Shown: in pieces, positions 22,396 to 52,998 of the stretch
How positions within the stretch are numbered: the stretch's first letter is position 1
Layout: each line of letters starts with the position of its first letter
NCBI GenBank assembly: GCA_964016885.1
Contig: OZ024740.1
Coordinates: 285,076,001-285,140,000 of the forward strand
DNA: 64,000 nt
Origin: Eledone cirrhosa
Lineage: Eukaryota
Direction: 5' to 3'
The notes under the pieces: model-generated
Databases searched by the model: none
What the model was told of the DNA's origin: nothing
Seen by the model: only the letters and a program-made list of their open reading frames with translations
Position numbers and translations under genes: made by a program

Positions 22396-22590
22396 AGGAG
22401 GGTGTGGTAAGATGCCAGGTGGACCATAATGCACCAGCATACTCGATACTTGGTGTAGTAGAGTGGGTAATATGAAAAGTTTCAGGACCCTGACGGCTGA
22501 GCTCTGGCCATTTCGACAGCTAGATCCGAGTTCGGATCTAGCTGTAGAAACGGCTGGAGCTCAACTGTCGGGGTCCTGAATCTTTTCATA
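22396..22590 (-). mobile_element. Hairpin element family A, copy 1
   Basis: 59-bp imperfect stem 22471-22590 with the same conserved flank and an adjacent (TA)n. Confidence 0.75.
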
Positions 22591-22773
22591 TATATATATA
22601 CAGATTGTGTAACAGTGACTGCACTAATGTGTATATAAATATACGACAGTCCTATGCGAGCAAGACAACCACTCTTGCCTCAAGTAGGAAAACCCCCGTC
22701 CAAACCCATGCAAGCGTGGAACACGGACGCTAAACCTGATGATGATGATGATGATGACACATATATGTATATA

Positions 22774-23543
22774 TCTATATATCTAAAACAGAGAACGTCT
22801 GTCTGTCTCTCTGACTCCCTAAAACTCGAGAACTACCCAACCGATTGTTTTCAAACATTATACATGTAATACTTATGGTCGTGTGAGTGTTTTGAGCAAA
22901 AAATATTTCAAATTTTCAATGCCATAGGGACCTCATTAGGCGATTTAGCGATCTCTCTCTGTAATTCTTAGTCTGTCTTTTTAGATAGACACACAGCTAC
23001 GATGTCGCGTCCTTATAATATCTGTTTGTATGTCTGGCTGTCTGCATTATGACATTATGACACTATCTGTGTGTGTGTGTATATATGTATGTATAGTGTG
23101 TGTGTATATATATATATAGTGTGTGTAACGCTTTTCGAAATATTTACTGCTGCATTCACAGATTGATTTTTTTAGTTTCAGAAGATCCCGTTAAGGATGA
23201 AAGCAGCGATTCTTTGCTTAAACTTTAATCTGTTATTTTAATATATATATATAATTATATATTCGTGTACAGATAGTTTTGCATACACAACAAAATATAA
23301 ACAAAAGTATTTATTTCCCGAGGCTCGATAGCAGCAAAAACAACAAAAAAGAGAGGGAACGCAATTACATGCTTTTGAAAAATCTCAATGGAAAATTATT
23401 TGCCTATTCATCCAAGGTGACTTCACTTTTTATTAGGACTTCTGCATCAATTGGTGAACATATGACGAAACTGTTTCAGAAAGGAGGGATAAACATGCCA
23501 ATCTATGTTTAGAATCCTGAGCAACGCCGGGCCATTCTGCTAG
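22774..23543 (+). mobile_element. Non-autonomous Helitron
   Basis: 5' TC (TCTATATATCTAAAA) after an A, GTCT microsatellite near the 5' end, subterminal GC-rich hairpin-like CCTGAGCAACGCCGGG, and 3' CTAG followed by T. Confidence 0.7.
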
Positions 23544-23596
23544 TATATATCTATATCTGTCTATCTATCTCTCCCTCTCTTTCTCTCCCCACCATT

Positions 23597-23639
<43 letters not shown>

Positions 23640-23727
23640 GTTCATAAATGGAACAAAAGCGCTACCAAAAGTTTCCCAATTATGACCATCTCCCCAGATT
23701 GTAAGAGCGATCAAATTTGCAACCTAG

Positions 23728-23781
<54 letters not shown>

Positions 23782-23852
23782 CTAAAGAAATATGCATATT
23801 TACATATAACAAAAAAAAAGAGAGGAAAAAAAAGGTGTGTCAGAGAGAGAGG

Positions 23853-23911
<59 letters not shown>

Positions 23912-24979
23912 TGTGTGTGTAACAAGATAATCTATGTAACAAAATATATAGCTATACATTACAAAATCTTCATTAATGAATTACTTGTATTTGTACAACA
24001 GTGAATGTTTGGATGTTTGTAAATAGATATATCAAAATTCTTCACAGTGAAGAACAAAATATGGTTTAATGCTACAACAATATATTCCAGTTTTAAATTC
24101 CAAAGGGATGTAAAATGTCTTGAAAAATGTTCTATGGGGAAAAGTTCTTATCATTTAGTTGTACATAGATAGTTTGCAAAGAACCCATTTATGTACTTCA
24201 GTAATAAAGTCTGATATGCCTAGTAAGTGCAAAATATATCAAATTTCAGTTCTTCATTATTCTTGGTACCTTTAGGTAAATCAAAAGAATTTTTTTTTTT
24301 TTTTTTTTATTGTAGAAGAGTATCTAATAAGAGTTTAACTGAAAATAGTGTCAATGTGTTAAAAAAAAAAGGAATAACTTTTTGAATGACTATTCTCTTC
24401 CCTCATTTTTATCATCCATAACATTGTTTTCTTTCCTAGCTTGCTTAGTCACCTAGCTGTTTTTTAAACTCTTTTCTAACACTCACCCTGCTCACTGCAT
24501 TTTTTTCACTCATACACCCACCAACGATACCTTACTCATCGGTTATTTGTAACAATAGTGAATGGTTTTGTTACAACTTTAAGGAGGGAATGTATTGATC
24601 TGAAATATAAGTGAGCTGAGAAATTTGAGTAGGATCCTTTACGAATTTGAACAGTGGAATAAATGTTAAGTGGATTATATATTTTATTTGGACAGCTTAG
24701 TTCAGGTAGTTATGCTATGGCTCATTCAGTTGGGTAAACTATCCACCCACACAAGCATGTTGCATGAACACATGCTAAGACGTCATATGATCTTCAAATG
24801 AGGCCAAAAAAATCTGATATACATCTTTGCAGTTTCAATGTCTGATCAGGCAAAACTTGACAAAGCTCACAACTCACAAAGAAAGTATTCTAACCTATTT
24901 ATGAATAAAAAGAAAAAAATGTTAAGGGAGGACTATAACAAGAAAGTTAACAAATTAAATATATGTTGCAACCTGCTTT

Positions 24980-25156
24980 TCAATGTAGCTGGGCCACATG
25001 AGCCAATGGGCCACATGAGACAACTAATTGTGCACATTGCAACTAATATTTTTTTAATTGTATATTACGCTCATGCTGTAAAAACCTTTGTGTGGGCCGC
25101 AGGTGTGCTTGTAAAAGGCCACATGTGGCCCACAGGCCACATGTTTGACATGCCTG
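24980..25156. mobile_element. hAT-like element right end
   Basis: GGCCAC subterminal repeats ending in GTTTGACATGCCTG followed by GTTTAAAG. Confidence 0.45.
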
Positions 25157-26229
25157 GTTTAAAGCATGGTGTCTGATGTCCTACCGATACTGCCAATCTA
25201 CTAATATAATAGCCTTGTGTATTTGTCCATAACGCAGTAGAGATGACTGAGGAAGTAAGGGGTGATGACAAAACTTCAGAAAGCAGTGTCTAACATTTGC
25301 TACACCTGTGTGTGTGTATTTATATAGCGAATTGGCTACACACATTGGCTTTTATAATTATGTGAGTGTTTGTGTGTGTGTATATGTATCATCATCATCA
25401 TCATCATTATCGTTTAACATCTATCTTCCATGCTAGCATGGGTTAGACAGGAGTTGTCCCAATTTGAGGCAAGGTTGATCGGGTGATCGTGTCTCACTCA
25501 TATAGGACTATCTGGCAGGTTTTCTACGGCTGGATGCCTTTCCTAACACCAACCACATTTACAGTGTGGAACTGGGAACTTTTTACCATGTTACCTACAC
25601 GGCCACATTACAGCATGGACTGTGTGTTTTTGTGGTGACACCTACATGATCTCGATCTCATTATCTCATTTATTTGGACTGGATGTTGTGGTACCAACTT
25701 TACAGACAGAGGGTGGTGTTGGTGGGAGTTGTAGGATGGAGTAGGGGTAGTGGGTTGGGGTGTATATTTGGTTAAGAGGTGCCTACTCACTGTAGGTTTT
25801 GCTTTGTACATAGGCAAGGCGGGTCTTCTGTATTACTGCGTGGCGCCAAAGATCTCGTTCCAGTGACATTGTCTTAGAGAGGTGCAAGTGTGTAAGGGCG
25901 GAATTTATCAAATCGTCCCAGGTTTTTCTGGGTCTACCTACTCCATAACTTCCATCAATTTTGATCGCCCTGCACTTTTTTATACAGCTGTCGTCTTTCA
26001 TGCACATCACGTGACCATACCAATGTAGTCTTCTCTCAAGTAAACAGCATCTGATCTCTCTTATTCCTAATTTCTCACTTGTTTGTGAAAATTATATTTA
26101 TATATAATATTTGTGTTTGTGTATGTTTATTTAGAAAGATACATAGATAATAGAATTACAAACACACACACATCTACGCATACATATATATAAATAGACA
26201 CACTTAGAAAAAATAATATTACATACACA

Positions 26230-26449
26230 CACACATCTATGTGATGACTGAGGAAGAAGTGGGTGGTGAGAAGCTATAGAAGTCCAGTGTTCTAAGATTC
26301 ATTATAGCTGTGTTTGTGTGTTTGTATCACTTGTGTGAGTGATCGCGAAGGAATCAACCAACTAGCCAACAAACAAACAAACATCTCTTTTTTCATATTA
26401 TGTATATATTACAATTAGCCGTCATTTTTGACAGCACGAGGCCAGCTAG
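26230..26449 (+). mobile_element. Helitron-like 3' end
   Basis: GCCGTCA-TTTT-TGACAGC hairpin about 10 nt before CTAG|T; related sequence at 25240-25320. The 5' boundary is approximate. Confidence 0.45.
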
Positions 26450-26497
26450 TATGATAATAAAAATTAAGAGAGCAAAAAAAATAAGGCAGAAACCTAC

Positions 26498-26625
26498 CTT
26501 CCAGTTCAGATTGATCAGCTGGAAAACCTGTGGATGTTCCTGTCAGAATTACTCCATCACTTAAGAAGAATTCTGCAGCCTTCGCAGTTTCAACTGTATC
26601 AATATCTTCTGTAATGCTGTGAGAG
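26498..26625 (-). CDS. BtpA/SgcQ-family protein, internal coding exon
   Basis: 128-nt exon with TAG acceptor (26626-26628) and GTAGGT donor (from 26497), phase 2 to 1, in frame with both neighbours. Translates SHSITEDIDTVETAKAAEFFLSDGVILTGTSTGFPADQSELE (DGVILTG..TG motif). Confidence 0.93.
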
Positions 26626-26759
26626 CTAGTTTTAAATTTGAATTTTGTAAAAATATAAACAATGTCTTTTAGGCATAGTTAAATTTAATTAAAAACATAA
26701 CTTTTTGTGAAAAATGAAAATTTCAAGTATGTGTTCACATTAGATTTAAATGTGTACCT

Positions 26760-26988
26760 TTAACCCTTTAGTATTTACATTACTCTATATATACTATTAT
26801 ATTTTCATGGTAAAGGTTTTATCTTACATAATTATCTCACAAAATATCGAATCTACGATATTTTGATGTCAATTATTTCAAGAACAATACCTTAACATCA
26901 GTATGAGTGGCTGATTACAGCCGGTTTGAACAGAAAGAGGTGAGAGAATTCTGGCCAGATATAGCCAGTTTAAATGCTAAAGGGTTAA
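26760..26988. mobile_element. piggyBac-type MITE (related copies at 44142-44856 and 62473-63075, both interrupted by SINE/RTE inserts, and 46727-46930)
   Basis: TTAA-CCCTTTAGTATTTA ... TAAATGCTAAAGGG-TTAA. Confidence 0.75.
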
Positions 26989-29900
26989 TAGAGACCAGTT
27001 TGTTACAAACATTTGAGTCAGGTTTCTGATCCTAGGATAATCTCCTTCTGCCAGTCCTGAGGCAACTGAAAAAGGTTATAGGCACTGCCCTTTCTCTTTT
27101 GTCTTAACCTTAACCCTAACAATAACCCAGAGTGTATGACAGAGTGTATGTTTAATAATTGAGATCAGTTTTTTTCATCTAAACAAATTTTTTATTCATT
27201 ATTTTTTTTTAAATGGTACTAGGGTCATTCTCCTTGAACACCAGTTATCACATGGCAGACTCTTAATTATCAGATCACAGACTTTTGATTATGACATCAC
27301 AGATATTTTCCTTATAATATCATGTAGTCATGATAATGACATCACACACTCTTGATTATGACATCAGATAATCTCGATTATGACATCACATAATCTTGTT
27401 CCAACTTCACAGACTTTTATGTTAGAAATATTTGACTAGATTATCCGAAGACTAGATTAACCAATGCTAGCGTGGAAGATGGATGTTAAACGAGGATGGT
27501 GATGATGATGATCTACGACAGTATTATGCTGTTAAATAATTGCCTAGAATGCTTTTTAGATAATGGTTCCTGATTTAGGCACAAGACCAACAATTTGGGG
27601 GGAAAGGGAAAGTCAATTAAATCGACCCAGTGCATTACTGGTACTTTATTTTATCAATCCTGTAAGGATGAAAGGCAAAGCTAACCCCAACGGGATTTAT
27701 ACTCAGAACGTAAAGGGCATTAACTCTGTCTGACGTTCTATCGATTCTGCTAATGTTTTTTTAAATAATGCAATGCAGAGCCACTTAGTATAAGGTTTGT
27801 GTTGCTGCTAACATTTTTCACAAAAAACTATCAAATTAAACCAATAATATCTGTAAAGTCACAAGCAGTTATGAATTGAAGACTATGGATTAATTATTGT
27901 TGTTGATGTTTTTGTTGTTGTCTAGACCTAAATTAACCCTGAGTAGAACTATTATCAAAGGCATTCAAGCCATGACGATCAATCCCTGTCTTTTATTCAG
28001 TGTATCTAGGCTTACATTATGTAATTTGTATTTTCTTTTTTTTCCTTAAGACAGTGGAATGTGATATCAAGTTTGGCTGTAATTTCTAGCAGATTGAGTG
28101 GTCATATTTTATGTAAGTTAATCCTTTTGTAGCCATATTTCTAATGAAATACAGTGCCAACCCTTACCTATGGTCATGAATATTGGGTTAAGACCGAAAG
28201 AGTACAATCACAAATACAAGCGGTCGAAATGGGGTTACTCTGAAGGGTCTTTTGAGTAACGTAGCTCAGAGATCAGAGAGCCACTCCAGGTAGAGCTGCT
28301 ACTTCTCCAAATTGAGAGATCACAGCTCCGATACTATGGGCATGTGGTTAGAATATCTGAGGAAAGATATCGTTGGACAGATTTTATGGGCAAAACCAAC
28401 AGGTAAGAGACCCAGGAGTAGACTCTGAGCAAGATGGTTGGATAACATCCATGAGCTTGGCTGGTCTGACTTGGGGATCCAGCCAGATCAGTTGGAGAAG
28501 GTTGCTTTTTACAGGACCCACTGGTAGGCATGTTTGAGGACTCTGTCTCCATGACCCTCTCAGGAATAAGTGGGCAAAGAAGAAGAAAAAGGAGGAAGAG
28601 GGTACAGAATCAGTGTTGAGAGCAAGATTATTATGAACCAGGTGCATTGGGCTGGTCATGTGGTCAGGTTGGAAAATGGAAGGCTGCCTAAACAGTTATT
28701 TTTGTGGGGAGCTGACCAGAGAAAAAGGTCACAGCATAAACCAAAGAAGTGGTTTATGGATGTTATAAAAGACAATATTAAAGAACTGAAGATTGATATG
28801 GAGAACTGGGAGAGACTGACTGAAGGTCGTATATAATGGAGAATGATCATCAAGTATGGATGTGATGTCTTTGAGAAAAGGCGAGTGGAGCATGCTGCTT
28901 TGAAGCATTCACTTTGTAAAGAGAACTCAAGTGTTGTGCTTGTAAAAATCCAGCAGGAATTGAAGTGCAATGTATGTGAATGATTACTTTTATTAAGAGT
29001 TGGATTTGTCAACCATCTAACTAAAGTCACACAAGCCAAGGAGAAATTGAGCCACTTGTGATATGGTTCTACTACCATACCTGCTGTAGTGCCTTTGCAG
29101 TGACTGTGGCTTAATTTGTAAGTCAGTTGGTGGATTGCCCAGACATGGTAGAATGCATGAAGACACACCCCAACCAGTAATGCCAGGAGACAGATAGTTC
29201 AAGTGTCACATCTGTGAATATTTCTGAAAAACAGAAGCTGGTCTGAAAAGTCACCTGCAGGCACATGATTGGGCAATGTTCAATGAAGGGATGGCACCCT
29301 TCTGACAAGAAGTAGCATTCAACATGTATGTATGTATGTATGTATGTATGTATGTATGTATGTATACACATTTGTATACATATGTGTCCATGAGTGAGTG
29401 TGTATGTGGGGGGGGGGGTCTAAATTTAGAAGATAATCATTGTTAGATTACAAGCTTTTCTTATCAACTGACACATAAACATACCCTTCTTTTAACAGAT
29501 TCCCCTTTAAACACACACACACGGATAAATAAAGCCATCAAATAAAAAATAAAATAGATCACCTCAAATACAAACACACACACACACACACACATATATT
29601 TACATAAACCTCCAGAATATGTTAGTTCCAGTATTGCACTTGTTCTGAAGAACACAGTAACCCAGTTTCTATAAATCTAATAAGACCTGGAGACAACATT
29701 TCATTTCAAATTTAAGGGTTAGTAATAGTATCCTAACAAAACAAAAACAAAAAACAAAAAAAAAGAACTTCCCATATCTTATATCAGTGCTATTCAGAAG
29801 GAGTAGTGGGGGCGGCAGGGGGTGAGGAGGTGTAAACTAATTCTTTCATCTTTTACATGTAGCAACCTTGATCCCCCACCACCACCACCACCATCACCAC

Positions 29901-30017
29901 CCCCACAGTCTATTCAGTTTAGCTGTTTAGCTAGTATAAAAAAAAAGCAGATTCATAACTCAGTATGTTAACTAATAGTTAATATACTTTTAACCAGTAT
30001 TTTCTGTTAACTTAGAA

Positions 30018-30470
30018 GAGAGAGAGAGTGAGAGAGAGAGAGAGGGAGAGAGAGACACACACATACACACAAGGGAAGTTGAAGTAAGAGATAGTGTGTG
30101 TGTGTGTGTGTGTGTGTGTGAGAGAAAAAGAGAGAAACAGAGAAAAACAGACAGGCAGCTAAAGATAGAGAAGGAAAAGGAAAGAGAGAGAGGGGGAAAG
30201 AAAGAGAGAGAGAGAGATAGATAGATAGAAAGAGAGAGAGGGAGAGAGAGAAATAGAGAGAAATAGAGAGAGAGGGAGATAGATAGATAGAGAGAGACAA
30301 AGAAAGGAGGGGAGAACGAGAGAGGGAGATAGAAAGATATAGATAGAGAGAGAGAGAGAAAGAGAGAGGGAGATAGACAGATAGATAGAGAGAAAGCGAT
30401 AGATAGATAGAGATAGAGAGAGAATATATATATAGATAAAGAGAGAGTGTGGGAGAGAGAGAGAGAGATG
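30018..30470. repeat. Compound (GA)n/(GATA)n microsatellite (other GA tracts at 23840-23910 and 39976-40077)
   Basis: Purine-rich dinucleotide and tetranucleotide runs. Confidence 0.9.
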
Positions 30471-30633
30471 GATGTGGTAGAATGAAAAGAGTTATCGATA
30501 ATCTTGCAAATATTCTAGTAAATTTCAGTTTATTAAAATATTTAATAAATTTCTTTTTACTCCATTATTATCGTCCTGCGTTGTCTTTATTGTTTCCTTA
30601 ATGTGAAGCCTGTGTGGCTAATAAAGAAATCAT

Positions 30634-31650
30634 TGGTGGATTGGCAGTATCGGTAGAGGGTCGGACACCATGCTTTGACGCAAAGAGTTACAGCCCTTGC
30701 TATTCTGAGTTCAAATCCTGCCGAGTTTAACTTTGCCTTTCATCCTTACAGGGTCGATAAAATAAAGTACCAGTAATGCACTGGATTATTACTGGCCTTG
30801 TGCCAAAAGTAGAAACAATTATTATTAATATTATGGCAAGGTGGTGGATTGGCAGTATCGGTAGAGGGTCGGACGCCATGCTTTCCAGCATAGTTACGTC
30901 CCTTTACGATCTGAGTTCAAATCCCGCCGAGGTTAACTTTGCCTTTCATCCTTACGGGGTCGATAAAATAAAGTACCAGTAATGAACTGGATAATTGCTG
31001 GCCTTGTGCCTAAAGAAGAAACAATTAATATTATGGCAGTATCGGTTGTGTGTCGGGCACCATGCTTTGCAACACAGAGTTGCGGCCCTTTACGTTCTGA
31101 GTTCAAATCCTTCCGAGGTTAGCTTTACCTTTCATCCTTACGGGGTCGATAAAATAAAGCCCCAGTAATGCACTGAGGTCAATTTAATCGACTTTCCCTT
31201 CCCCAAAAATTGCTGGCCCTGTGCTTATAGTAGAAATCATTATTATTAGTAGTATTGGTAGAGGGTCGGAATGCCACGCTTTGCAGCATAGAGTTACGGC
31301 CCTTTATGGTCTGAGTTCAAATCCCGCCCAGTTTAACTTTGCCTTTTATCCTTATGGGGTCGATAAAATAAAGTACCAGTCACGCACTGGGGTCAATTTA
31401 ATCGACTCCCCCCCCCCAAATTGCTGGCCTTGTGCCTATAATAGAAATCATCATCATTATTATTGATTGGCAGTATCGGTAGAGGGTCAGACACCCTGCT
31501 TCACGGCAGAGTTGCGGCCCTTTACGTTCTGAGTTCAAATCCCGCCGAGGTTAACTTTGCCTTTCATCTTTATGGGGTCGATAAAATAAAGTACCAGTAA
31601 TGCACTGGGGTAATTGCTAGCCTTGAGCCAAAAGTAGAAACAATATCATT
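30634..31650 (+). mobile_element. Head-to-tail array of ~5 tRNA-derived SINEs with a Meta/Sauria-like central domain (other copies or arrays at 1-160, 5952-6140, 14995-15200, 20505-20692, 27565-27755, 33292-33805, 38497-38680, 39381-39630, 45145-45620, 46437-46575, 55310-55700)
   Basis: Repeated GGATTGGCAGTATCGGTAG..GAGTTCAAATCC..CTTTGCCTTTCATCCTTACGGGGTCGATAAAATAAAGTACCAG..GTAGAAACAATTATT units. Confidence 0.85.
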
Positions 31651-31912
31651 ACTATTATCATCATCATCATCATCATCATGATTTTTGTTATTTTTACTGG
31701 TCCCCTCAGCCATAGCCTTATGACATGTAAAGAAATGTGTTGTTATTGTTGCTGTTGATGGTGGCTATATTGTTATTATCTTTTTTATATTGCTGTTATT
31801 ATTTTAACTGAATATATAGAAATGTATACATACACACATATATACACACACACACACATGTATGTGTGAGTATATATATATATATATATACACATACACA
31901 CACACATATGTA

Positions 31913-31946
<34 letters not shown>

Positions 31947-34852
31947 CACATACACACACACATAAATATGTGTATGTATGTATGTGTGTGTATGTATGTA
32001 CACAAGAAGTAAAGTAAACAAGAATATGTAACTAAATTAGGCTTAAACAACAGGCAATAAGGAAGAAAGAGTATCATATATAAAGTCAATAGAAATAATA
32101 TTTAAAAGACAATTGATGGTTGCGTTGAATCTTTTCTTTCTGTTGTTTTGGTAGAGGGAGTATTCTATTCCAAAGAAGAAAAAAAAAACTGGAAAAAAAA
32201 AAAAACTTTGTTCCTGTTTTGCAAAGTTGAAGAGAAGTCTTGGCATTTGATGTGAAATGTAAGAGAATAAATGGAGATAGGCTGCTTGGATAATCAGAAA
32301 CAGTGTTACTAAGCATGGTAAAATGAAATTGAATGGGGGAACAAGGACAGCATTAAACCAAAATAAAATACATAAACACATACAATTCAGCAAAGCTTTA
32401 CAAAAATGTTATGATGCTCCTGCTGGAGGGTAAGAACTTAAAGATTAAAATACTGTCTGTCAACAAAAAAAAAGGGCTACTGACCAAGATGCCAGAGGTC
32501 AGCTAAGTTTGTTGATGGAACTCTGAGCATGCAAGTTATCTTTTGTTACAGTGACTAAAAAAAAAGTGTACAAGCAGGAGAGAGATGGCTATAGTGGTAA
32601 AGTGTAATGGTGGTGGTGGTGATAGTGGTAAAGCAAGTAGGAAAAAGGAAACCAATTTGACACATGGAAGTTATCACAACCTAGGTGTCAACTTTAGGTC
32701 AGTAGACTTAATTCAGTTTTGAGTTAAGAAGACTCAGTAGGAGGTTGTTTTGTGTTTATGCTTTCAGTTTCAATTCAATACAGTTTTGTTTTATTTGTTG
32801 TTGTTATTTTATATATCCCTTCAACCAGTTATTCCAGTTTCAAATTTAGAATAATCCTTGGAATTTTTGTTTTTCTTTTCAAGTTGTTGGTACATCATAC
32901 CACCTGGTTTAACATCAATACTTGGCCCATGAGTGCCTTTAGTAGAGTTCACTCTGTTAGAAAATTTAGGCCAAGATCTCAGCAGTGTTATCATGATGCT
33001 GGCTCAAGTTTGTTTATCTCTTCGTGATGGGCCCTGGAAACTGATCCCTGATCATTGATCCCAATCTGGAAAATGACAACAACCTGAGATCAACTCATAT
33101 GTAAGAAGAAGATGATGCTGGTTATATCCTACTGTACATAGTGTGCGTTTTTGTCCCAAAATGACTGAAATATAATGCTGCATTTTACATGTGATGCTGA
33201 AATCTCTTGAATTATTTATTCCATGATAACGACTACCAAAAACTACTGACATTTCTAAATTATATCCATATATGATTTAATATTATTATTTTCTGAGTTC
33301 AAATCCTGCCGAGGTTAACTTTGCCTTTCATCCTTACGGGGTTGATAAAATAAAGTACCAGTAATACACTGGGATAATTGCTGGCCTTGTGCCAAAAAGT
33401 AGAAACAATTATTTACACCACACTTTGCAGCATAGAGTTATGGCTCATTATGTTCTCTGTTCAAATCCCACCGGGATTAACTTTGCCTTTCATCCTTACG
33501 GGGTCGATAAAATAAAGTACCAGTAATACACTGGAATAATTGCTGGCCTTGTGCCAAAAGTATACACAATTATTTACATAAACATTGGGAATTGGCAGTA
33601 TCAGTAGAGAGTTGGACACCATGCTGCGAAGCATCGAGCTACGGCTCTTTACATTCTGAGTTCAAAGCCCGCTGAGGTTAGCCTTGTCTGTCATCCTTCC
33701 CTGTCATCGATAAAATAAAGCACCAATAATGCACTGGGGTTGATTCAATTGATTTTCCTCTCCCCTTCAAATTGCTGACCTTGTGCCTAAAGTAAAAATA
33801 ATTATTTACACAAGCATCATAATTTTTGTTTAGTCATAGAGTGGTGGATGACAAATTGTAGAGTTATTAAAGCATTGGATGGAATGCATTATGATGATGA
33901 TGATGATGATCATCATCATCATCATCATCATCCTCATCATTGTTTAACATCCATTTTCCACACTTGCTTGGGTTAGGTGGTTTGTTGTGTTATGAGACAA
34001 GTCAGGTCAGGAGATTGCGTCTTGCTTATATGGACCTGTATTTTGAATTGGTTTCTATGCGGGATGTCCTTCCTAACCCCAACCACGGTACAGTGTGTAC
34101 TGGGTGCTTTTTACCATGGTACCAAAACGACCACCATACAAGGTGGACTGGGTAGTATTTGTCGTGACACTAGCACGACCACCTTACAAGCTGGTCTGGG
34201 TGCTTTTTGTCTTGTCACCAGCATGACCCCCTTACAGGCTAGACTAGGTGCTTTTTGTCATGTCACCAGCATGACCACCTTACATCTGGACTAGGTGCTT
34301 TTTGTCATGTACTTTTCTAAGATGGTAAGAGATATTTGGACATTATTTCAAGTAGTAGATTTAGGAATTCCCTTGTTGGCTCAAAGTTAAATATACATTT
34401 TACACAGGCAGTGGACAGACAAAATACTTTGTAGTATTTACTTATGTCTTTTATGCTCTAAGTTCAAAATCTGTTCAGATTCACTTTGTCATTCATCTTT
34501 TGCAGGTTAATAAAATAAGCATCAATCAAGTACTCCAGCATGGCCACAGTCCAATTAATGAAGCCAGTAAAAGAATAAAAGGAAACAGAATTTGTATAAC
34601 TCATTATTTGTAATTACTTGAAAGTAAATGATATAAAATAATAATTTGTAATTTAGACACGAAGCCAAGAATATATGGGGATGGAAAAGTCAATCACATT
34701 GACTCCAGTATGTGACTGGTACTTTATTTCATCGACTCAGTGGGATTTGAACTCAGAACATAAAGAACTATAACTAAGTGTTGCAAAATATTTTGGCTGG
34801 TGCTCTAACGATTCTGCCAATCCACTGCCATTAAATGATTTAAAATACTAAC

Positions 34853-39938: not shown

Positions 39939-39993
39939 ATAATATTTTAGTATATCTATAATAGTATACCATGTTGAGAGAGAGAGAGAGAGA

Positions 39994-40081
<88 letters not shown>

Positions 40082-40643: not shown

Positions 40644-40678
<35 letters not shown>

Positions 40679-40701
40679 AACACACACATATATATATATA
40701 G

Positions 40702-40748
<47 letters not shown>

Positions 40749-41065: not shown

Positions 41066-41131
<66 letters not shown>

Positions 41132-41342
41132 ATAATAATATTATTTATAGTTATATATACACTATATACAACTATAAACAGGAAAGGTCAGTAATTCATT
41201 ACTACCTTATTACCAGTAAGAAAAATAGCTCAATGTAAATATATCAGATGTTTTACAGAGCAGGAATATAAATTACACAATAATCATACGCTTGCATATG
41301 TACTGTTAATGTCCTCGTTTTATGAATAACTTTCTGCCTTAA

Positions 41343-41748
41343 TGCCTCTTTAATTATTATACTATTCCCTTGTAATCTCTGTCACATGCATTCCACTCTG
41401 TGCCTCTTTAATTATTATACTATTCCCTTGTAATCTCTGTCACATCCATTCCACTCTGTGCCTCTTTAATTATTATACTATTCCCTTGTAATCTCTGTCA
41501 CATCCATTCCACTCTGTGCCTCTTTAATTATTATACTATTCCCTTGTAATCTCTGTCACATCCATTCCACTCTGTGCCTCTTTAATTATTATACTATTCC
41601 CTTGTAATCTCTGTCACATCCATTCCACTCTGTGCCTCTTTAATTATTATACTATTCCCTTGTAATCTCTGTCACATCCATTCCACTCTGTGCCTCTTTA
41701 ATTATTATACTATTCCCTTGTAATCTCTGTCACATCCATTCCACTCTG
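41343..41748. repeat. 58-bp minisatellite, 7 near-identical copies
   Basis: Unit TGCCTCTTTAATTATTATACTATTCCCTTGTAATCTCTGTCACATCCATTCCACTCTG at 41343, 41401, 41459 ... 41691. Confidence 0.95.
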
Positions 41749-41843
41749 TAAATATGAAACTGTTGATGACAAGATTAATATTCATGTATCTATATGATTG
41801 TTCAGTTGAATATGAAGTTAATTATATGTCCAAACTTTGCTAG

Positions 41844-41890
41844 TGCTCCGATGAATCCAAACGAAAGTTTGGAAGAAACGATTGTCAGCA
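41844..41890 (+). ncRNA. Type I hammerhead ribozyme, U4C core variant
   Basis: TGCT-CCGATGA-A-TCCAAAC(GAAA)GTTTGGA-A-GAAAC(GATT)GTC^AGCA followed by ATAAAA. Confidence 0.75.
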
Positions 41891-41926
41891 ATAAAATGTT
41901 TTGAACATAGTTTTGATAATTGTGTA

Positions 41927-41971
<45 letters not shown>

Positions 41972-42017
41972 AACAAAGTGGAGATGTTACATAGGAGATT
42001 TATTGCTCAACTCAATC

Positions 42018-42106
42018 CTGGTTACAAATGTTTCTCAAGCAGCTGGCTCAATATCTGGGATGCCATGTCCAAACTAGAGTCCAAGTCTGCCTGATCCTCA
42101 GACCAG
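42018..42106 (-). ncRNA. Type I hammerhead ribozyme with extended helix II
   Basis: CTGGT-CTGAGGA-TCAGGCAG(44 nt)CTGCTTGA-GAAAC(ATTT)GTA^ACCAG, followed by AATAAA and a (TA)n tract. Confidence 0.82.
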
Positions 42107-43222: not shown

Positions 43223-43333
43223 CCCGTTGATGAAGCCACATGCGCTGATTGTGCATTGTTGCATAATATATGTGGACAGTGGGTGCTGTGCACTTTATTG
43301 CTGCATTAAGTGTGACCGAAACTTGAGTACGGG
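43223..43333 (+). ncRNA. Hammerhead-like motif, C3U variant, long helix II
   Basis: CCCG-TTGATGA-A-GCCACAT(long)GTGTGAC-C-GAAAC(TTGA)GTA^CGGG, about 110 nt before a (TA)n tract. Confidence 0.62.
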
Positions 43334-46300
43334 AATAATTGAAGGTACCCATTTACGTGTGTTGTATTGAAACTCTGGGAGTTTATTTAACATTATCTAC
43401 TGAGTACGCTGAGATGCAGTGAAACCCATGCTAGTTCCGTCAACTTATTATATATATATATATATAGTTCAAGGACACAACAAACAGAGGTACAAAAAGT
43501 CTTGTTAGTTTCACACATCATATGGAAAAAGGGAAAGGAAGTTCGACATGTCGGCTTTAGCCTTTCTTCCAAAGTATAAAAATAGAGACAGGATCACAAA
43601 GGATAGTTACAGTAATATTTGTGAACCAATTTGTAATATATGTATAACTCAATCTTTTCAGATTCACTTACAAATGTAATGGACACAGGCACTTCCTCCA
43701 AACAAAATCAATAAAAAAAATGTTTGGTGGGAAAATATATTTCATCTATAGATATCCTATAATATAGTCCTTTTAAATATTTTTGAATATGTAATATCTT
43801 AATTAATTGTTTTGTTTTGTTGATCCCTCATCTTACAGTCTATTATCTTACAAAAGAAATTACACATTGGACAATGTAGACAATGTAGTCCCTGATATAC
43901 AAAATGATGGGACAGTTACAGCTGAGACACCTTTGATCATAGGCTTGTTTCATCAGAGATGACTTGGGGCTAAACAACAACAATGATAAAATGTTCAAAA
44001 TGAATGATGTATGTAAATTGTCTTTGGTTTTCAACTATATTTTTCAATGTGCACCTTCATCTGAAATATACCTGCAGGCATTGCACATATCTTCCTTTAT
44101 TCACAAAGAAAATCAGATTTGAGAAAAAGAATAAAATAGTTTTTAACCCTTTACTCTATATTTACTATTATATTTTCAGGGTAAAGGCTTATCTCACATA
44201 ATATCAAATCTATGAGATTTTGATATTATTTCATCATCATCATCATCATCATCATCATTATCGTTTAACGTCTATCTTCCACGCTAGCATGGGTTAGACG
44301 GGAATTGTCCCACTTGAGTCAAGATTGATCAAGTGACCATGTGTCACTCGTATACCACTGTATCTGGCAGGTTTTCTATGGCTGGATGCCCTTCCTAACA
44401 TCAACCACATTTACAGTGTGGAATGGGAGCCTTTTTACCGTGTCTCCTACACAACCACTTTACAGCTTGGACTGGGTGCTTTTTGTCGTGACACCTACAC
44501 AACCTCTTTAGTTTGGACTGGATGTTCTGTGGTACCAACATAACTTTACGGAGAAAGGGTGGTTGGGGGAAGTGGGAGGATGGAGAAGGGGTAGTGGGTT
44601 GGGTGTACATTTGGTTAAGAGGTGCCTACTGACTGTAGGTTTAAGGTCTCGATGAGTGACATTGTCTTAGAGAGGTGTAAGTGTGCAAGGTCAGATTTTA
44701 TCCCGGGTTTTTCTGGGTTTACCTACTCCATAAATTCCATCAATTTTGAGAAAAATACATTAACATCAGTATGAGCGGTCGGTTACAGGCAGTTTGAACA
44801 GAAAGAGATGTGAGAATTCTGGCTGGATATGACAGGTTTAAATGCTAAAGGGTTAATGGTTGGTGTTATTTGTTTATCTTTGCTGGATCTTTGGTGCATC
44901 CCCCCCTCCCCACAAACCTATTATAAGGCATAATGGGTAGGGGATCAACTGACCACAGTGAACCCCTACAAATGTAATATGAGGTGCTGTAACCTCATTC
45001 CCCCTGCACCCAGAAAATTTGTTAATTAGATTATTTTCAATGGTATTTGAGCACATGCTTTCTCTGAGAGACAATATTTAATATTTAGTATTTAAATAGC
45101 TGATATTACCGATAATAATGATTATTTCTTTATTAAATAATAATAATGGTTTCTTATATAGGCACAAGGCCAGCAATTTTGGGGGAAGGGAAAATCGATC
45201 AAATCGACCCCCAGTGCGTGACTGGTACTTTATTTTATCAACTCCATAAGGATGAAAGGCAAAGTTAACCTTGGTGGGATTTGAACTCAGATCATAAAGG
45301 GCTGTTAAATCGACCCCAGTGCATTATTGGTGCTTAATTTTATCGACCCTTTAAGGATGAAAGGCAAAGCTAACCTTGGCGGGATTTGAACTAAGAATGT
45401 AAAGGGCCGTAACTCCATGCCACAAAACAGGGTGTCCAACGCTCTACTGCTACTGCCAATCAACTCCAATACTTAACTAGTACTTTTATTTTATGGACCC
45501 TAGAAGGATAGCTGGCAAAACTGACATCAGTGGAATTTGAACTCAGAATATAAAGAGCCATAACTAAATGCCACAAAGCATTTTATCTAATGTTCTAATG
45601 ATTCTGCCAATCCACCACATCTAAATGAAAAATGATGGGCACTTGCAGATAGTAAGTCTCATACTGGAACAATGGCATTGTGAATGTTGCAATCATCATT
45701 ATGAAGGCCTGACCCAGAGCTGGCAAACTGATTTATGCCTCCTAATAGATGCCCATCTAAAAATAAACCTTTAGATTTTCGGATTGAGCAAGAAGCTAAC
45801 AGCCTTTTCTGATCTAGCATGCTGCAAAAGCCATCCAAAAATAGCAGAGAACATGGAAAACATAGACAGACCAATATGTTGTAAGTATATGTGTGTGTGT
45901 GTGTGTGTGTGTGTTCTTTTGTTTTATTGATAGCAAGACCACAACGTTATCAGAAGAAATAGTCCACTGAAGAATAAACTTGACATTTATGTGAAAGTGC
46001 TGCTGGAAAATATCAGCTGCTGAGATCAAATTTAACCCTTTCATTACCAATATTCTAGGAAAAAGACACTGCTTATAATTTTCAAATCCTTTTGAAACTA
46101 AAATTTTGGAGGATTTAGTAGTATAACTAACTTTCTCAATGTTAAGCTGATATTTGGAATATAACTTTAAAGTGTTCTTACATAAAATTATGATGAAATG
46201 TGTTACAGTAAATATAAACATTTCAAAATAAATAACTCAGTATCACAGAACCATGAATGGTTTCAAATGGTTTGGTATCAAAAGGGTTAGTATTGATTTG

Positions 46301-47293
46301 TTTCTTACAAAAGCACTAAGACAATTTTGTAGTCACTCAACCTGCTAGAAATAGTTGAACCACATATTACCATCTTAAAATGGCAGGACACAAGATAATA
46401 TAGTGGGAAATATACTGTCTGTAAAAAATAAAAAAATAATTGTTTCTACATTTGGCACAAGGCCAGCAATTATCCAGTGCATTACTGGTACTTTATTTTA
46501 TCGACCTCGTAAGGATGAAAGGCAAAGTTGACCTCAGCAGGAATTGAACTCAGGCTGTAAAGGGCCGTAACTCTAATAATGGTGAAAAGATAGGATCATC
46601 ATAGTTGGGTTGTTTTTGATCATAGTTCTGCTTGATCAGAGTTGACAGGGAGTTGAATAACAACACACACACATCTATTGATTCTCTGAAATAAATTCTT
46701 CAGGTTGTTATTACTTGTCAAATACATTAACCCCTTAGCATTTAAGCCAGCTGTATCCGGCCAGAATTCTCTCATCTTTTTCTGTTCAAACAAGCTGTAA
46801 CCAGCCACTCATATTGATGTTAAGGTATTTTAGCCAAAATAAATAATATCAAAATCTCATAGATTCGATATTATGTGAGATAAAGCCTTTACCATGAAAA
46901 TATAGAGTAATGTAAATACTAAAGGGTTAATACTTCGTCAATCCAATAAAAGAACTGCTATGTAGTTGCTCAAGCTGCTAAAGAATAAAAGCCAAATCTC
47001 CTTCAAATCACATACTGCCATCTTGAAAAAAAAAAAAAAAAAAAGAAACTACACATTGGATAATGTAATCCTAGATACACCTTGATAGAAGACACGTTTG
47101 GATATTCATGGCTGAAATGTTATTGATCATGAATCTTCTCAACCACAGCTGACCTAGGGCTGATTATTAAAAAAAAAAAAAAAAAAAAAAATGTAGAATT
47201 TGTATATTGGCATAAGGCCACAAAATTTAGTATGTTATAACTGATTTATTTGACCCTAATATGTGACTGGTACATATGTTATTGACTCTAGAA

Positions 47294-47800
47294 CAGGGGT
47301 CGGCAACCTTTTGGAGACAGAGGGCCAAACAGCTATGCAGTGTCATGGAGGAGGGCCATGTTATTAAATATGTAAATAAATTTTCTGGAGGTTTAAAGCA
47401 AAACAAGGAATTTAATATAATTTTATTTTAACAAGGCCCCTTATTTTACTGCAGGAATAACAAAAAAAAAAAAAGAAAAAAGAACTCAAACACATTCAAC
47501 AAAAAAAAAAAGCAAATTCCTTATTTTACTGCAGGAATAACAGAAAAACAACTACTATCACAATCAACAAAAAGAAAAGCAAATTCCTTGCTACAAACAA
47601 AATACAGTTAGAAATGGCAAATGATTTAATGTAACACTTGTTTCTGCTTATTGTGCGACATCTTCTCCGCATCAGGTGAAATATTTGACAGAGCTCTGTT
47701 TCATACTATTTGGTACTTATCAAAGCTAAGTACTCCACCTGTCCGCTGAAAATCATGAATGTTTGATTCTTATAGAATTCTAGTAATAATCAGGAACTGA
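47294..47800 (+). mobile_element. hAT (Charlie-like) element left end
   Basis: CAGGGGTCGGCAACC terminus preceded by CTCTAGAA, the Charlie-type NTCTAGAN target. No right end seen; the extent is approximate. Confidence 0.5.
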
Positions 47801-47984
47801 TTATACAGAGCGGTTGCCGGTCAAGCAGAAATTGAAAATTAGAATTTAAAGTAAGTGAGACCGTCACTACTCTAAAACAATAGCGTAAGGTCTTCAAAAT
47901 GCTTTTAATTAAGCATACAGTGTATTGCAAAATACACTATATATATATTCATATATATATCGCTATTTCAGAGCACCAATTCTA

Positions 47985-48019
<35 letters not shown>

Positions 48020-48421
48020 TATATATAGGAGGCACATGGCTTAGTGGTTAGAGCATTGGTCTTGCAATCGAAAGGTTGTGAGTTTAATTCTTAGACCGGG
48101 TGATGTGTTTTTTCTTTGAGCAAGACACTTTATTTCACATTGCTCCAGTTTACTCAGCTGTAGAAATGAGATGATAGGGACTGGGGTCCATATCATTCCA
48201 TTGCAAAGTGGTCATGGAGGTGCCACGGCAAAAAAGCACCCAGCACTCACTGTAAATGAGGTTGGTGTTAGGGAGGGCATCCAGCTGTAGAAATCAAGCC
48301 AGAATCAGTTCCCGTCCCACCCTTGCAAGCAGGAAAAAGCGGACGTAAAATGATGATGATGATGATATATATATATATATATACGTATGTATTTATATAT
48401 ATATATATAAATACGTATGTA

Positions 48422-48459
<38 letters not shown>

Positions 48460-48493
48460 CATACAGCGAGTTATGTATATATATATATATATA

Positions 48494-48681
48494 TAGGAGA
48501 AAGTGTTTAACCCCGACGGCAGAGCTCAAGTCGTTTCGACGGCTCCAGAAATGGCCGTCGAAACGACTTGAGCTCTGCCGTTGGGGTTAAACACTTTCTC
48601 CTATTACCCACTCTACTACTACCCTAAGTATTGAGTACTCTGGTGCATTATGGTCCATCTGCTTCCTTACCACACTTCCTT

Positions 48682-48686
<5 letters not shown>
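48494..48686 (+). mobile_element. Hairpin element family A, copy 2
   Basis: ~50-bp stem 48494-48603 followed by TTACCCACTCTACTAC..TATTGAGTACTCTGGTGCATTATGGTCC..CTTACCACAC, with (TA)n on both sides. Confidence 0.75.
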
Positions 48687-48736
<50 letters not shown>

Positions 48737-49226
48737 CATACATATATATATCTGATGAAAGCACACCATAATCCATTTGTTAATATATTGTATATTTACT
48801 CCAATAATTTGTTGAGTGCTTTATATCAGTTATAAAAAATATTTTGCTTGTTGTATCCCAACAAATTAAATATAACCTAACCTCTACATATATATATATA
48901 TATATATGTAGTTATGTAATAAACAACATAATTTCATTTACCAGTGGTTTCTTAAAAGCAAAAAAAAAAAATCTTGCTTTCAATCATCAGAACGAAAAAA
49001 TCCTGGTGTAATCCAACATCAATAAATACACCAGAAATTTTTCGTTCTGATGATTGAAAGCAAGATTTTTTTTTTTTTGCTTTTAAGAAACCACTCGTAA
49101 ATGAAATAATTGCCTTATGTTGTTTATTACATAACTATTAAGCTCTGTTACCTACATAGAGCACTCTTTTTTCCTGGACTTTTCCGACGGAATTACTTCA
49201 TTTATTCACACACATATATATATGTA

Positions 49227-49498
49227 TATATAATAGAAAAAACGAGGAAGTTTTGTTTACATATGAAAAATATTTATTGCGTATCGACTTGTTATGTGTG
49301 TTTCGCAGAGGATTGACTCAAGGTGACCCATAGGAGTTATGGAGCTGACTGCAGTATCGATCTGCTCCTCAGACTGGTGATGTGACAAATGATATATTTT
49401 TGTAAACGAAACTTCCTCGTTTTTTCTATTATATACACTCTTCCTGTGCATAGAGTGCTTGATTTGGTACCAACATCAGTACTTCACCGTACTACCTA

Positions 49499-49500
<2 letters not shown>
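49227..49500. mobile_element. Fold-back element with ~35-bp inverted arms enclosing a truncated hammerhead
   Basis: Arms TATATAATAGAAAAAACGAGGAAGTTT..TTTACA and its reverse complement (to 49435). Minus strand 49286-49372 reads CTGAGGA-GCAGA..TCTGC-GAAAC..GTC, but helix I is unpaired. Confidence 0.6.
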
Positions 49501-49545
<45 letters not shown>

Positions 49546-49624
49546 TGCATGTACCCCCCCCCCCCCCCCTTGTAATGTATTGTGACTGTGTTTGTGAATA
49601 AATTGTAAATATATTTACATGCTT

Positions 49625-50340
49625 TATCATCATCCTCATCATCATCGTTTTACGTCTGTTCTTCCACGCTAGCATGGGTTAGACGGGTTGTCCTGTTGTG
49701 GGCAGTGTCCAGTCGACTGACCTTGTCTTGCTCATACAGGTACTGATTCTGGCTTGATTTCTAGAGCTGGATGCCCTTCCTAATACCAACCTCATTTACA
49801 GTGAGTGCTGGGTGCTTTTTTCCGTAGCGCCTACACGTCCACTTTACAGTGTGGGCTGGGTGCTTTTTTCCGTAGCGCCTACACATCCACTTTGCAGTGG
49901 GAGGGGGTAGGGGCATATTGTCTATATACTTCAGCTTCGGCTTGTTCCTGTGAGGGGGTCGAGTCTTCTGTATTACTGCGTGACGCCAGAGGTCACGGTC
50001 ATGTGTCATTGCTCTTGAGAGGTGCAATTGTGTAAGGTCGGCCTTTATCACCTCATCCGAGGTCTTCTTGGATCTCCCCACTCCGCGGCTTCCATCGACT
50101 TCTAGTGCTCTGTACCTTTTTATGCAGCTGTCATATGTCCATACCAACGTAACCTCCTCTCCTGCACACAGCATTTGATTCCTCTGATGCTCAGTCTCTC
50201 TCTCGATTCGTTTATACTTTGCCGTTCGCGTATATTACTATTATACATCCATCGGAGCATGCAGGCTTTGTCTCTTTCTAATCTGCGCAAGTCTTCTACA
50301 GACAGCGCCCAGGTTTCACTTCCATGTAACATTTCTGTGC
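49625..50340 (-). mobile_element. RTE 3' end including 3' UTR (similar pieces at 25390-26080, 58945-59485 minus; 60445-61200 plus)
   Basis: MLHGSETWALSVEDLRRLER, RRLRWYGH, GVGR.KKTWDE, running into the same tail sequence that ends the CORE-like SINE. Confidence 0.8.
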
Positions 50341-51381
50341 GTATACACGCAATGTTTAATAAACATATATTTAGCCACATTGTGAAAATAGATGTATTGC
50401 ACGCTCTCTGCAAGTTAACCACAAACGTGCTGTCTTCAGTTTATACGTATCACCGATTAATGTACTGATATGCACAAATGAACAAAGGTTATACTTGCTG
50501 ATCATCACATTTTTCATAAGTAGTTGTAAGCCTCTCTCACTCTCTTTCTCTCTCACTCTCTCTCACTCTCTCTCTCTCTCTCTCTCAGTGTAGAACAAAT
50601 AAAGTCAAATGCTTAATAAACTGGTAAAGACCAGGTAAAACAAGTCCATCCTGCAAAGAGAACCTTCTTTTGGTGTTATAAGCATAAATATATGTAATCT
50701 AAAATGCACATATGCACATAACACTGAAAGAAAAAAATACTGGTGAATATACTGGTTTTGCTCAGTATATAAACATTAGTAAAGCAAAATAGAAGTGGGC
50801 AAGACACATTACCAGAATGACTGACAACAGATAGACCACTCTCGTCACCTTCTGGACCCCACGAGGTCACAGAAGAAACTGAAGCCACCAGAAGACCAGG
50901 TGGCAAGACAACCTCGAGAGAATTGAAAACTTTTGACCAAGAATGGCTCAAGACAAAGATTTTACAGCTCAAGGAAGGCCTTTGTCCAGCAATGGACTTT
51001 CTAGGGCTGAAGATGATGATTAAAATATCTCCAAAATACAAACAGAATCAAAATGAAATTGTTCACTCACTAAAAGATAAAATTATAGAAATGCACATAA
51101 AAATTTGATTCCTAATTTGATAAAATTTGCATAAAAATGCACATAAAAATTTGATTCCTAAAATAAATAAGAATTATTGATTCCCATTTATACTGGTAGT
51201 GACATAGGCACTTGGCTAAATGACATAATGTCTAAACATCAAAGCAATGCAGTCATTTCATATGTATACTGCAGTGATGGCTGGAGTTCATTCTCACCAG
51301 AACATGAAAGTGTTAGAAACAAATGAGGAGGAAAGAACTTCATATCTAAAACAGGAACTACTACTCACATGTAAAAAAAAT

Positions 51382-51421
<40 letters not shown>

Positions 51422-51694
51422 AGAATGAAACGAAATTTCATTTCTCACTCTTAGTATGGCACTTACTTAAATGTAAGTATGTATGTATGTATACGTACAT
51501 ACATATATGTATACAGACGTACAGTAGTATGTATATATATACATACATGCACACATATATATATGCACGTATCAGTTTACCGAACATTTATTATAATGCT
51601 CGGTTTGTTCGTTTGTAAACAAACAAACAGCCTGAATTACGCCATACAGTGTTTAGACAACCACGTCACCTTTTTGTTCAACACTGACACAGGA

Positions 51695-51737
51695 ACGATG
51701 TACTAGTTTCAAGCTTATTAGCTATCATCAGCATCGT
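51695..51737 (-). ncRNA. Type I hammerhead ribozyme
   Basis: ACGATG-CTGATGA-T-AGCT(AATA)AGCT-T-GAAAC(TA)GTA^CATCGT: 6-bp helix I, GUA triplet. Confidence 0.85.
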
Positions 51738-51896
51738 ATACCTTCCTGCCAGATGGTTGAACGTCTGAAAGTATATACGTTTTCGGTGCGCCCAGCCGAC
51801 TGATCTCACTCGATATGCAAATTAGGCTGCTCAGCCGTTAATATGCATAAGGAAAGTATATACTTTCAGACGTTCAACCATCTGACAGGAAGGTAT

Positions 51897-51939
51897 ACGA
51901 TGCTGACGATAGCTAATAAGCTTGAAACTAGTACATCGT
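51897..51939 (+). ncRNA. Type I hammerhead ribozyme (inverted partner, CUGACGA core)
   Basis: acgatg ctgacga tagct aata agctt gaaac ta gta catcgt; differs from the left copy only at the free N7 position. Confidence 0.85.
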
Positions 51940-52598
51940 TCCTGTGTCAGTGTTGAACAAAAAGCTGACGTGGTTGCCGAAACACTGTACGGCGTAATTC
52001 GGGCTGTTTGTTTGTTTACAAACAAACAAACCGAGCATTATAATAAATGTTCGGTAAACCGATACGTGCATATATATATGTGTGCATGTATGTATATATA
52101 CACATGCTACTGTACGTCTATATACATATATGTATGTACATATACATACATACATACTTACATATATATATATATATATATACACACACGCACACATATA
52201 TATTTGTTAACAAAGCTAGTGGAAGAAATATCATTATCATCGTCACTATTTAACTTGGTTAGATGGGTTATCACATTATACTGTTAGACAGGTCAGATGA
52301 GTATCTTGCACATACAATCAATTTTGGGCTTATTTTCTATGGTTGGATGCTTTTCCTAATGCCAACCAATTTACAGGGTTGACTGGGTGCTTTTTTTGTC
52401 ATGGCACCAGCACAACCATTCTACAAGGTTGACTGCATATATATGTGTGTGTGTGTTTGTGTGTGTGTATTTATGTAGATACAATAAACATCCGTAGATG
52501 TGAAAAAGGAAAACAGTGCTAAATCAGGTATGAGAGCTGATATATTATATTATTTATGAACATAAATAAATAATATAAAACTATATATATCTATCTAT

Positions 52599-52834
52599 CT
52601 AGGGCAGGTAAAATTCCCGAGATCCATAGACGAGTTCTCTCCAGCGGCCTCTGTCCCTCATCATTGCCGCAATGTCCTGTGTCTCTAAGAGATCAGTGTC
52701 TGTCCTTAGGGCATCAATATATGTCAACCTCGGTCTCCCTTTTCTAGTGTGTCCGTGCAGGGGCTCCCACAGGAGCACTGAGTGCAGTGTCAACTCTGGA
52801 TGTTGGTGAGCATGTCCAGCTAACCTCAGTCTCC
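52599..52834 (-). mobile_element. RTE-X/RTE-like LINE 3' end (second copy 37830-38100; other RTE-like scraps at 15400-15610, 19545-19910, 28175-28920, 50790-51020)
   Basis: RRLRLAGHAHQHPELTLHSVLLWEPLHGHTRKGRPRLTYID, ending in an ATAG-repeat tail. Confidence 0.75.
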
Positions 52835-52998
52835 GAAGGAAATGTGGTAAGGAACCAGGTGGACCATAACGCACCAAAGTACTCAATACTTGAGGTAGTA
52901 GAGTGGGTAATAGGAACCAGTAAGACCCCGACAGCTGAGCTCAAGCCGTTTCGTCGAAACGGCTTGAGCTCAGCTGTCGGGGTCTTACTGGTTCCTAT
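52835..52998 (-). mobile_element. Hairpin element family A, copy 3 (perfect 44-bp stem, half-hammerhead)
   Basis: 52910-52998 is a perfect palindrome with a 1-nt loop. Each arm reads GAAAC-GGC..GCT-GTC-GGGG. It shares its ~75-bp flank with 22396 and 48604. Confidence 0.75.

Follow-up and report, generated by a model that had tools for sequence, protein, structure and literature searches.

Short hairpins in the Eledone cirrhosa genome as stub insertions of a Hydra-clade Penelope-like element, probably formed by twin priming

How can hairpins that share a flank carry stems that differ from copy to copy, each pairing only with itself? The question is raised by a stretch of 64,000 nucleotides of Eledone cirrhosa (assembly GCA_964016885.1, contig OZ024740.1, positions 285,076,001 to 285,140,000 of the forward strand), hereafter the window, which holds three such hairpins. 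These are not chance structures, but stub insertions of a Hydra-clade Penelope-like element (PLE) in (TA)n, the shortest of their kind. It is quite likely that each is a minimal insertion formed by twin priming. Positions are given as u, the number of nucleotides upstream of the predicted hammerhead cleavage site (u0); inner ends at u41 would then mark a capped RNA start, and those at u0 would be self-cleaved ends. All three hairpins lie where an initial annotation had placed them, with slightly refined limits, and are organized as follows:

22392-22591, whole hairpin of copy 1, tail on the left
22392..22469, minus strand (RNA sense on the minus strand), PLE tail of copy 1; its outer end is initiation site 2
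22470..22528, minus strand, tail-side arm of copy 1: helix I 3' strand, helix III, GAAA, helix II 3' strand
22529..22591, plus strand, inverted arm of copy 1; begins at u41 and ends at initiation site 1 on (AT)n
48493-48685, whole hairpin of copy 2, tail on the right
48493..48543, minus strand, arm of copy 2 from initiation site 1 on (TA)n; reaches about u28
48544..48604, plus strand, tail-side arm of copy 2; reaches about u39
48605..48685, plus strand, PLE tail of copy 2; ends on (AT)n at initiation site 2
52834-52998, whole hairpin of copy 3
52834..52909, minus strand, PLE tail of copy 3, identical to the long copy L125 over 77 nt
52910..52953, minus strand, tail-side arm of copy 3; reaches about u27
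52955..52998, plus strand, inverted arm of copy 3; ends at initiation site 1 on (AT)n

The common flank, first described as about 75 bp long, measures 77-81 nt, and is 85-87% identical to a long relative in copies 1 and 2, and 100% identical in copy 3. Copy 3 is indeed a perfect palindrome, with a 44-bp stem around a single central nucleotide (52910-52998), whereas perfect pairing in copies 2 and 1 extends over at most 28 and 14 bp, respectively, as cores inside longer stems. The outer stems differ in the way originally quoted, and each pairs with its own opposite arm. They are subfamily variants located just 3' of helix I, and they still pair because both arms copy the same segment. The arms correspond, as had been proposed, to the 3' half of a type I hammerhead ribozyme, and the 5' core strand (the CUGANGA half) is absent from all three copies. 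The motif given for every arm is not exact throughout: copy 2 reads GAAACGAC; the variant GAAATGGC is that of copy 1, where it is found in the tail-side arm. This arm belongs to a divergent subfamily and ends at about u37-38, and base 22529 (u41, the proposed RNA start) is common to both arms of copy 1 and begins the second. Cleavage sites are predicted between 22569 and 22570 in the inverted arm of copy 1, and between 52978 and 52979 in that of copy 3. A bulged hairpin is found in the tails of copy 2 (48610-48636) and copy 3 (52881-52904); the latter resembles, by eye, the 3' end of Hydra-2_Amil, with the same UU-bulged stem, as printed in the PMC8557442 supplement. An Rfam search did not list the three window copies as hammerheads.

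Exact-pattern searches of the 3.0-Gb genome yield 51,910 matches to a flank 16-mer and 56,467 to an arm 27-mer, the reversed control giving 0 in both cases. An open reading frame (ORF)-start 24-mer has 286 matches and a hammerhead 5'-half pattern 5,635, so that full-length relatives carrying the missing half do exist; stubs, thus, far outnumber long copies, in a ratio that is rough because the patterns span different subfamily ranges. Most insertions of this PLE consist only of the stub structure, of about 170-200 bp. The main, unbiased sample (n = 103) comprises the first 100 flank matches, which cover the first 14 Mb of contig C1, and the three window copies. Short two-arm inserts make up 74 of these, and were scored for paired arms; the other 29 are long, single-armed or complex, and unscored. 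A second sample, from the youngest subfamily, consists of 88 of the first 100 of 3,639 hairpins, retrieved with a pattern that selects summed arm lengths of 62-92; 84 were parsed (168 arm ends) and three were misparsed at substitutions. In contigs of sequencing runs (kind unspecified), loose (AT)n ends lie behind both initiation sites, and depth forms a plateau across the stub region, where it is no measure of copy number.

Which element do the stubs derive from? Some flank matches continue uninverted into reverse transcriptase (RT) and endonuclease sequence. Locus L125 (C1:11.22 Mb) is composed of an inverted arm, a truncated unit (partial tandem), and a full unit whose ORF, of 719 aa, is open; the flank is the PLE tail and, in this locus, runs on into the leader of the next ORF. 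The single ORF combines an RT with a C-terminal endonuclease (YRDD at 348, YIG at 606), has RWR at 37 (a conservative variant of RWK), lacks GxKF, reads DKT at 117 in place of DKG, and carries a CxCX5C linker, CxxC and CxH motifs at 572, 670 and 698. A Pfam scan of this ORF returned 0 families; its Atlas neighbours have GIY-YIG/RVT_1 on part of their members. Judged from the motifs of PMC8557442 and from likeness by eye to Hydra-1_Obim, the element is a Hydra-clade PLE. With Hydra-1_Obim (PMC8557442), it shares the single RT and C-terminal endonuclease ORF, DKT, CxCX5C and CxxC/CxH, a (TA)n target, and a hammerhead near the 3' end, and the proteins appear homologous by eye; it is nevertheless a separate family, with a unit of 3.0-3.5 kb. 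Hydra-clade elements are generally shorter than 3 kb, and their canonical hammerhead is typical, not diagnostic (PMC8557442). Here, the unit is 3,035 bp long in L125, with a tandem spacing of about 3.54 kb, and the element departs from the clade norm by its length above 3 kb and its variant U3-A8 core. Partial tandems, an inverted 5'-truncated copy and a tail at one end occur in L125, L110, L149 and L150. Head-to-tail arrays of three to four full units, with about 3.54-kb spacing, are found at C1:91.48 Mb, C1:437.20 Mb and C2:320.55 Mb.

In the long copies, the ribozyme runs from helix I through the core strand (U/C)UGANAA to a helix II whose loop measures about 32-34 nt, and on through GAAA and helix III to GUC, the intact core being CCCC-(U/C)UGANAA and not the CCCC-CTGANGA that had been anticipated. 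The structural features of a type I hammerhead (three helices, a 3-8 pair, G10.1-C11.1, and an NUH site) are found in these relatives. Position 8 is A in all 100 matches listed, although the pattern allowed G. Across 18 aligned long copies, 93.9% of cells are paired and U3-A8 is found in 15; changes on both sides occur at four pairs, nearly all in two divergent rows, and the covariation therefore amounts to few events. Minimum free energy folding recovers helices I and II and mispairs helix III. U3-A8 in place of C3-G8 is known from the type I hammerheads of Schistosoma Cercyon PLEs, but those are minimal and have no stable helix III (PMC4209133), whereas helix III is full here, and helix and loop II are very long. 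The Hydra rows of PMC8557442 File S2 have CUGANGA cores and short loops, compared with a U3-A8 core and about 32-34 nt in loop II here, where helix III comprises 5 bp and is closed by a loop of 9 nt. The tail measures 80 nt in this family, as against 30-40. The subfamily of L016, L078 and L079 combines C3 with A8, a mismatched core pair, and has yet spread; its ribozyme may be weak or dead. In L023 and L026, what is missing from one arm is precisely helix III, from one GACGGC repeat to the next, as though the RT had skipped the hairpin.

The outer ends of the stubs are sharply defined. First arms start at u-98 (site 2, the tail end) in 86 of 103 copies, and second arms end at u-19 (site 1, the pseudo-long terminal repeat (pLTR) end) in 64 of 74; (TA)n adjoins 77 of the 86 and 59 of the 64, respectively. 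Both sites share TAT/TA with the (TA)n target, and each lies 5-6 nt ahead of a bulged hairpin whose eight stem pairs are, in 91 of 100 copies, 96-100% kept, with a variable loop and no compensatory pairs. Site 1 also terminates uninverted long copies (L125) and, therefore, acts alone as a priming site. A lizard PLE protein, that of Anolis Poseidon, cuts and extends both target strands in vitro from two internal RNA sites (PMC11167929). The two systems are alike in having two initiation sites that bound the tail, an AT-rich target, and a stem-loop near the start.

These ends suggest a route by which the two arms arise. Each of the two cut target strands likely serves as a primer for cDNA on the element RNA, the first at the pLTR end and the second at the tail end, 80 nt further. 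Each cDNA likely extends until it runs off the RNA 5' end, after which the ends of the two cDNAs are likely linked head to head. If one RNA is engaged at both sites, the tail-primed cDNA could displace the other. In L1 twin priming, a second priming on the other target end similarly gives a 5' inversion, but the second primer acts at variable internal sites (PMC11702581), whereas both sites are fixed here. The inverted 5'-truncated pLTR and the one-sided tail are known from endonuclease-containing PLE insertions (PMC8557442 and PMC3846280), which also share the head-to-head layout and the junction palindromes; in E. cirrhosa, by contrast, mostly this structure alone is found, with junctions clustered at two defined points. 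How inverted PLE ends form is stated as open in PMC8557442, and self-priming on antisense RNA is the guess published in PMC3846280, where the palindromes are read in that way; the data presented here favor two sense-templated cDNAs.

The initial annotation was right to see a Penelope-type inversion, with a junction made separately at each insertion. It had, however, explained the inversion by RT stalling and snap-back, and an account of this kind, akin to that of PMC3846280, would have a tail-end cDNA stall or run off, fold back, copy itself, and be resolved at site 1, with any asymmetry due to later deletions. The lengths of the arms disagree with this. The second arm is longer by at least 10 nt in 21 of the 74 scored copies and shorter in 7 (p = 0.013), some differences of 10-13 nt being alignment artefacts; at differences of at least 20 nt, it is longer in 17 and shorter in 3, with one tail/tail pair (L030) left out. 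In six copies (again leaving L030 out), the first arm stops short of the outer end of the second, and the arms of these copies, therefore, share nothing. Since a fold-back copies only first-arm content, a second arm that holds sequence missing from the first is no copy of it. The junctions point the same way: 31 of 74 have inserted bases and 28 an overlap of 0-3 nt, so that 59 of 74 are blunt, inserted or barely overlapping, and in several, each arm has its own extra terminal base, as in the loop-less case where both arms end at u41 and are joined by CG. The use of site 1 by uninverted copies is a further argument for a priming site of its own. At C1:13301169, the arms come from two subfamilies, but chimeric arms as a general rule were rejected, with one clear case, perhaps two, among 55.

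Several observations weigh on the other side. The arms usually belong to the same subfamily and are within one difference of each other in 46 of 55 scored copies, as snap-back also predicts; it also predicts the pairing of site 1 with the tail, found in 18 of 18 fully classified arm-anchored pairs (five more have one unclassified end). Junction palindromes are common, with an overlap of at least 4 nt in 15 of 74, and the asymmetry could come from later deletion in the palindrome, although its direction is not easily explained so. Near-identical arms with one arm per site fit snap-back, and fit one RNA engaged at both sites equally well. Overall, simple snap-back is disfavored and appears improbable, and a better fit is provided by two cDNAs that start from separate priming sites and are joined afterwards. 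Far less credible still is that the hairpin is its own mobile unit, resembling a miniature inverted-repeat transposable element (MITE), a Helentron or a retrozyme, or a selected small-RNA hairpin with covarying stems. The very high copy number, near-perfect stems and TA target would suit such a unit, but junctions vary from copy to copy, the sequence runs colinearly along the end of an element that carries an RT, and the stems match since both arms copy one segment. Helitron/Helentron, MITE and microRNA-like readings were dropped on account of the variable junctions and the continuation into the RT-bearing element.

With twin priming as the preferred route, the inner ends should show where the template RNA began. 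Of the 148 arm ends of the 74 scored copies, 95 lie at u33-48, a single 16-nt stretch, and 4 beyond it. The breakpoints are, thus, non-random, and most arms end in loop II, just past helix II, and not inside or at the base of that helix, where fold-back had originally been located. In the young subfamily, ends are most frequent at u41 (34 of 168), and no end lies further upstream than u45. These two positions are the A residues of TTAGTC and TCATTT, respectively, both of which we take to be initiator-like. Ends at u41 are followed by C in 25 of 35 cases, versus 24 of 117 for ends elsewhere (Fisher p = 5e-8), and, genome-wide, C outnumbers T there by 3,253 to 650, while the template base is A, sometimes G, and never C among the long copies listed. 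By analogy, this non-templated C in the cDNA would equal the extra G that marks the capped 5' ends of full-length L1 insertions (PMC11702581), a feature in which the two elements would be alike. In the divergent subfamily to which copy 1 belongs, 22 of 30 matches stop at u40-41 under a conserved TTAGT. A start site with TATA- and initiator-like motifs has precedent in pLTRs (PMC2377424 and PMC3846280). A TATA-like TATTTA at about -30 and a stretch resembling a motif ten element, both seen by eye, were left unused as evidence; TATTTA doubles as part of helix II, and the divergent subfamily has not conserved it.

Position u41 would accordingly be a capped RNA polymerase II start inside loop II, in which case most templates would lack the CUGANGA-equivalent half and be unable to self-cleave in cis. 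Most stub templates would come from the far more numerous 5'-truncated pLTR copies, mobilized in trans. Several counts run counter to such a start. ORF-bearing copies were expected to begin at u41, and this prediction failed: of 60 such copies found among the first 100 matches listed, a start at u38-44 is seen in only 2 and one at u-2 to 6 in 4, whereas 40 keep an intact hammerhead 5' half directly upstream, and long insertions, therefore, derive mostly from read-through RNA and not from a u41 start. An excess of C is also seen at u36 (8 of 14), C follows only 2 of 10 u41 ends in the divergent subfamily, and inner ends spread over u33-48 instead of falling on one base.

A minority of inner ends mark a second point. 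Very short hairpins of the young subfamily number 253 genome-wide, and in the first 30, 28 of 60 arm ends lie exactly at u0. In 10 of these 30, both arms stop exactly at u0 and the joint contains extra bases, mostly A/T, and another 5 are joined bluntly (CCCCGGGG); of 100 listed, about 27 are of the inserted type and about 25 are blunt, as counted by eye. The simplest reading of the u0 ends is that they are likely run-off products from the 3' product of self-cleavage, and thus a fossil of in vivo cleavage; their source would be self-cleaved read-through RNA. On the other side, a 2-nt microhomology at u1 could account for the blunt CCCCGGGG joints as well, but not for the inserted ones. For Anolis Poseidon, PMC11167929 reports no RNA-seq reads at the cleavage site and unprocessed RNA as the main template, and leaves inversions unexplained, whereas here, a minority of stubs end exactly at that site.

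Twin priming could be right and the inner ends still have another origin, namely, for the stops at u33-48, stalling of the RT or a break of the RNA within the AU-rich loop II and, for those at u0, stalling at the base of helix III. RTs add non-templated bases even without a cap. The broad spread of inner ends, the C added at u36 too, the ORF-bearing copies without a u41 start, and the lizard RNA-seq all agree with this. It accounts poorly, however, for the sharp upper edge, with no arm beyond u45 among 168, or for the conservation of both the stop position and TTAGT in a subfamily whose loop II is otherwise different. The added bases also differ by stop (C at u41, mostly A/T at u0), and an RT that stalls at helix III should still have copied the unpaired C17 and thus stop at u1, whereas 28 of 60 ends are at u0. 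Stalling or breakage as the source of both clusters is, hence, rather doubtful.

Put together, a capped start and cleavage would make the stubs a genomic library of RNA 5' ends, akin to rapid amplification of cDNA ends (5'-RACE): ordered twin priming on sense RNA at two hairpin-marked sites, a capped start in loop II, and germ-line cutting by a long-armed U3-A8 hammerhead, whose 3' product is retroposed. This full scheme is offered tentatively, as a serious possibility that falls a little short of probable. If it is true, the ribozyme is only half present in primary transcripts, and self-cleavage is confined to read-through RNA. The clade, the inverted pLTR, the tail, two-site initiation and U3-A8 are already published; a literature search, mostly without subscription papers, found no published twin-priming, cap or cleavage-site reading of PLE junctions. 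The interest is mechanistic, mainly for specialists of retroelements and ribozymes, as the element class and its anatomy are known. From this family, predictions follow at base level and with high counts, namely that RNA starts at u41/u45, that it is cut at u0, and that each site contributes one arm.

Other repeats are found in the window. At 53089-54365, starting just past the (TA)n of copy 3, two direct copies and one inverted copy belong to another family, unrelated to the hairpins, whose hammerhead has the canonical CUGAUGA core and scores 31.8 bits with Rfam HH9, below the gathering threshold; in locus L143, a stub is followed by the same linker sequence. A third fold-back, at 51468-52166, lies in (TA)n and is likely another PLE family; its arms (314 nt, 95%) carry hammerhead cores in mirror arrangement. 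A long, perfect-looking fold-back, at 48940-49100, shows CTGATGA..GAAA on both strands and is possibly another stub type. A 300-bp family resembling short interspersed elements (22070-22388, 48028-48327, 54600-54899, 58226-58525 and 62498-62775) adjoins hairpin copies 1 and 2 and has a weak tRNA-like head (Rfam 25-28 bits; none by ARAGORN). Finally, a 58-bp tandem array, 99% identical, lies at 41285-41807, and a long GGT-rich simple repeat at 8750-9850.

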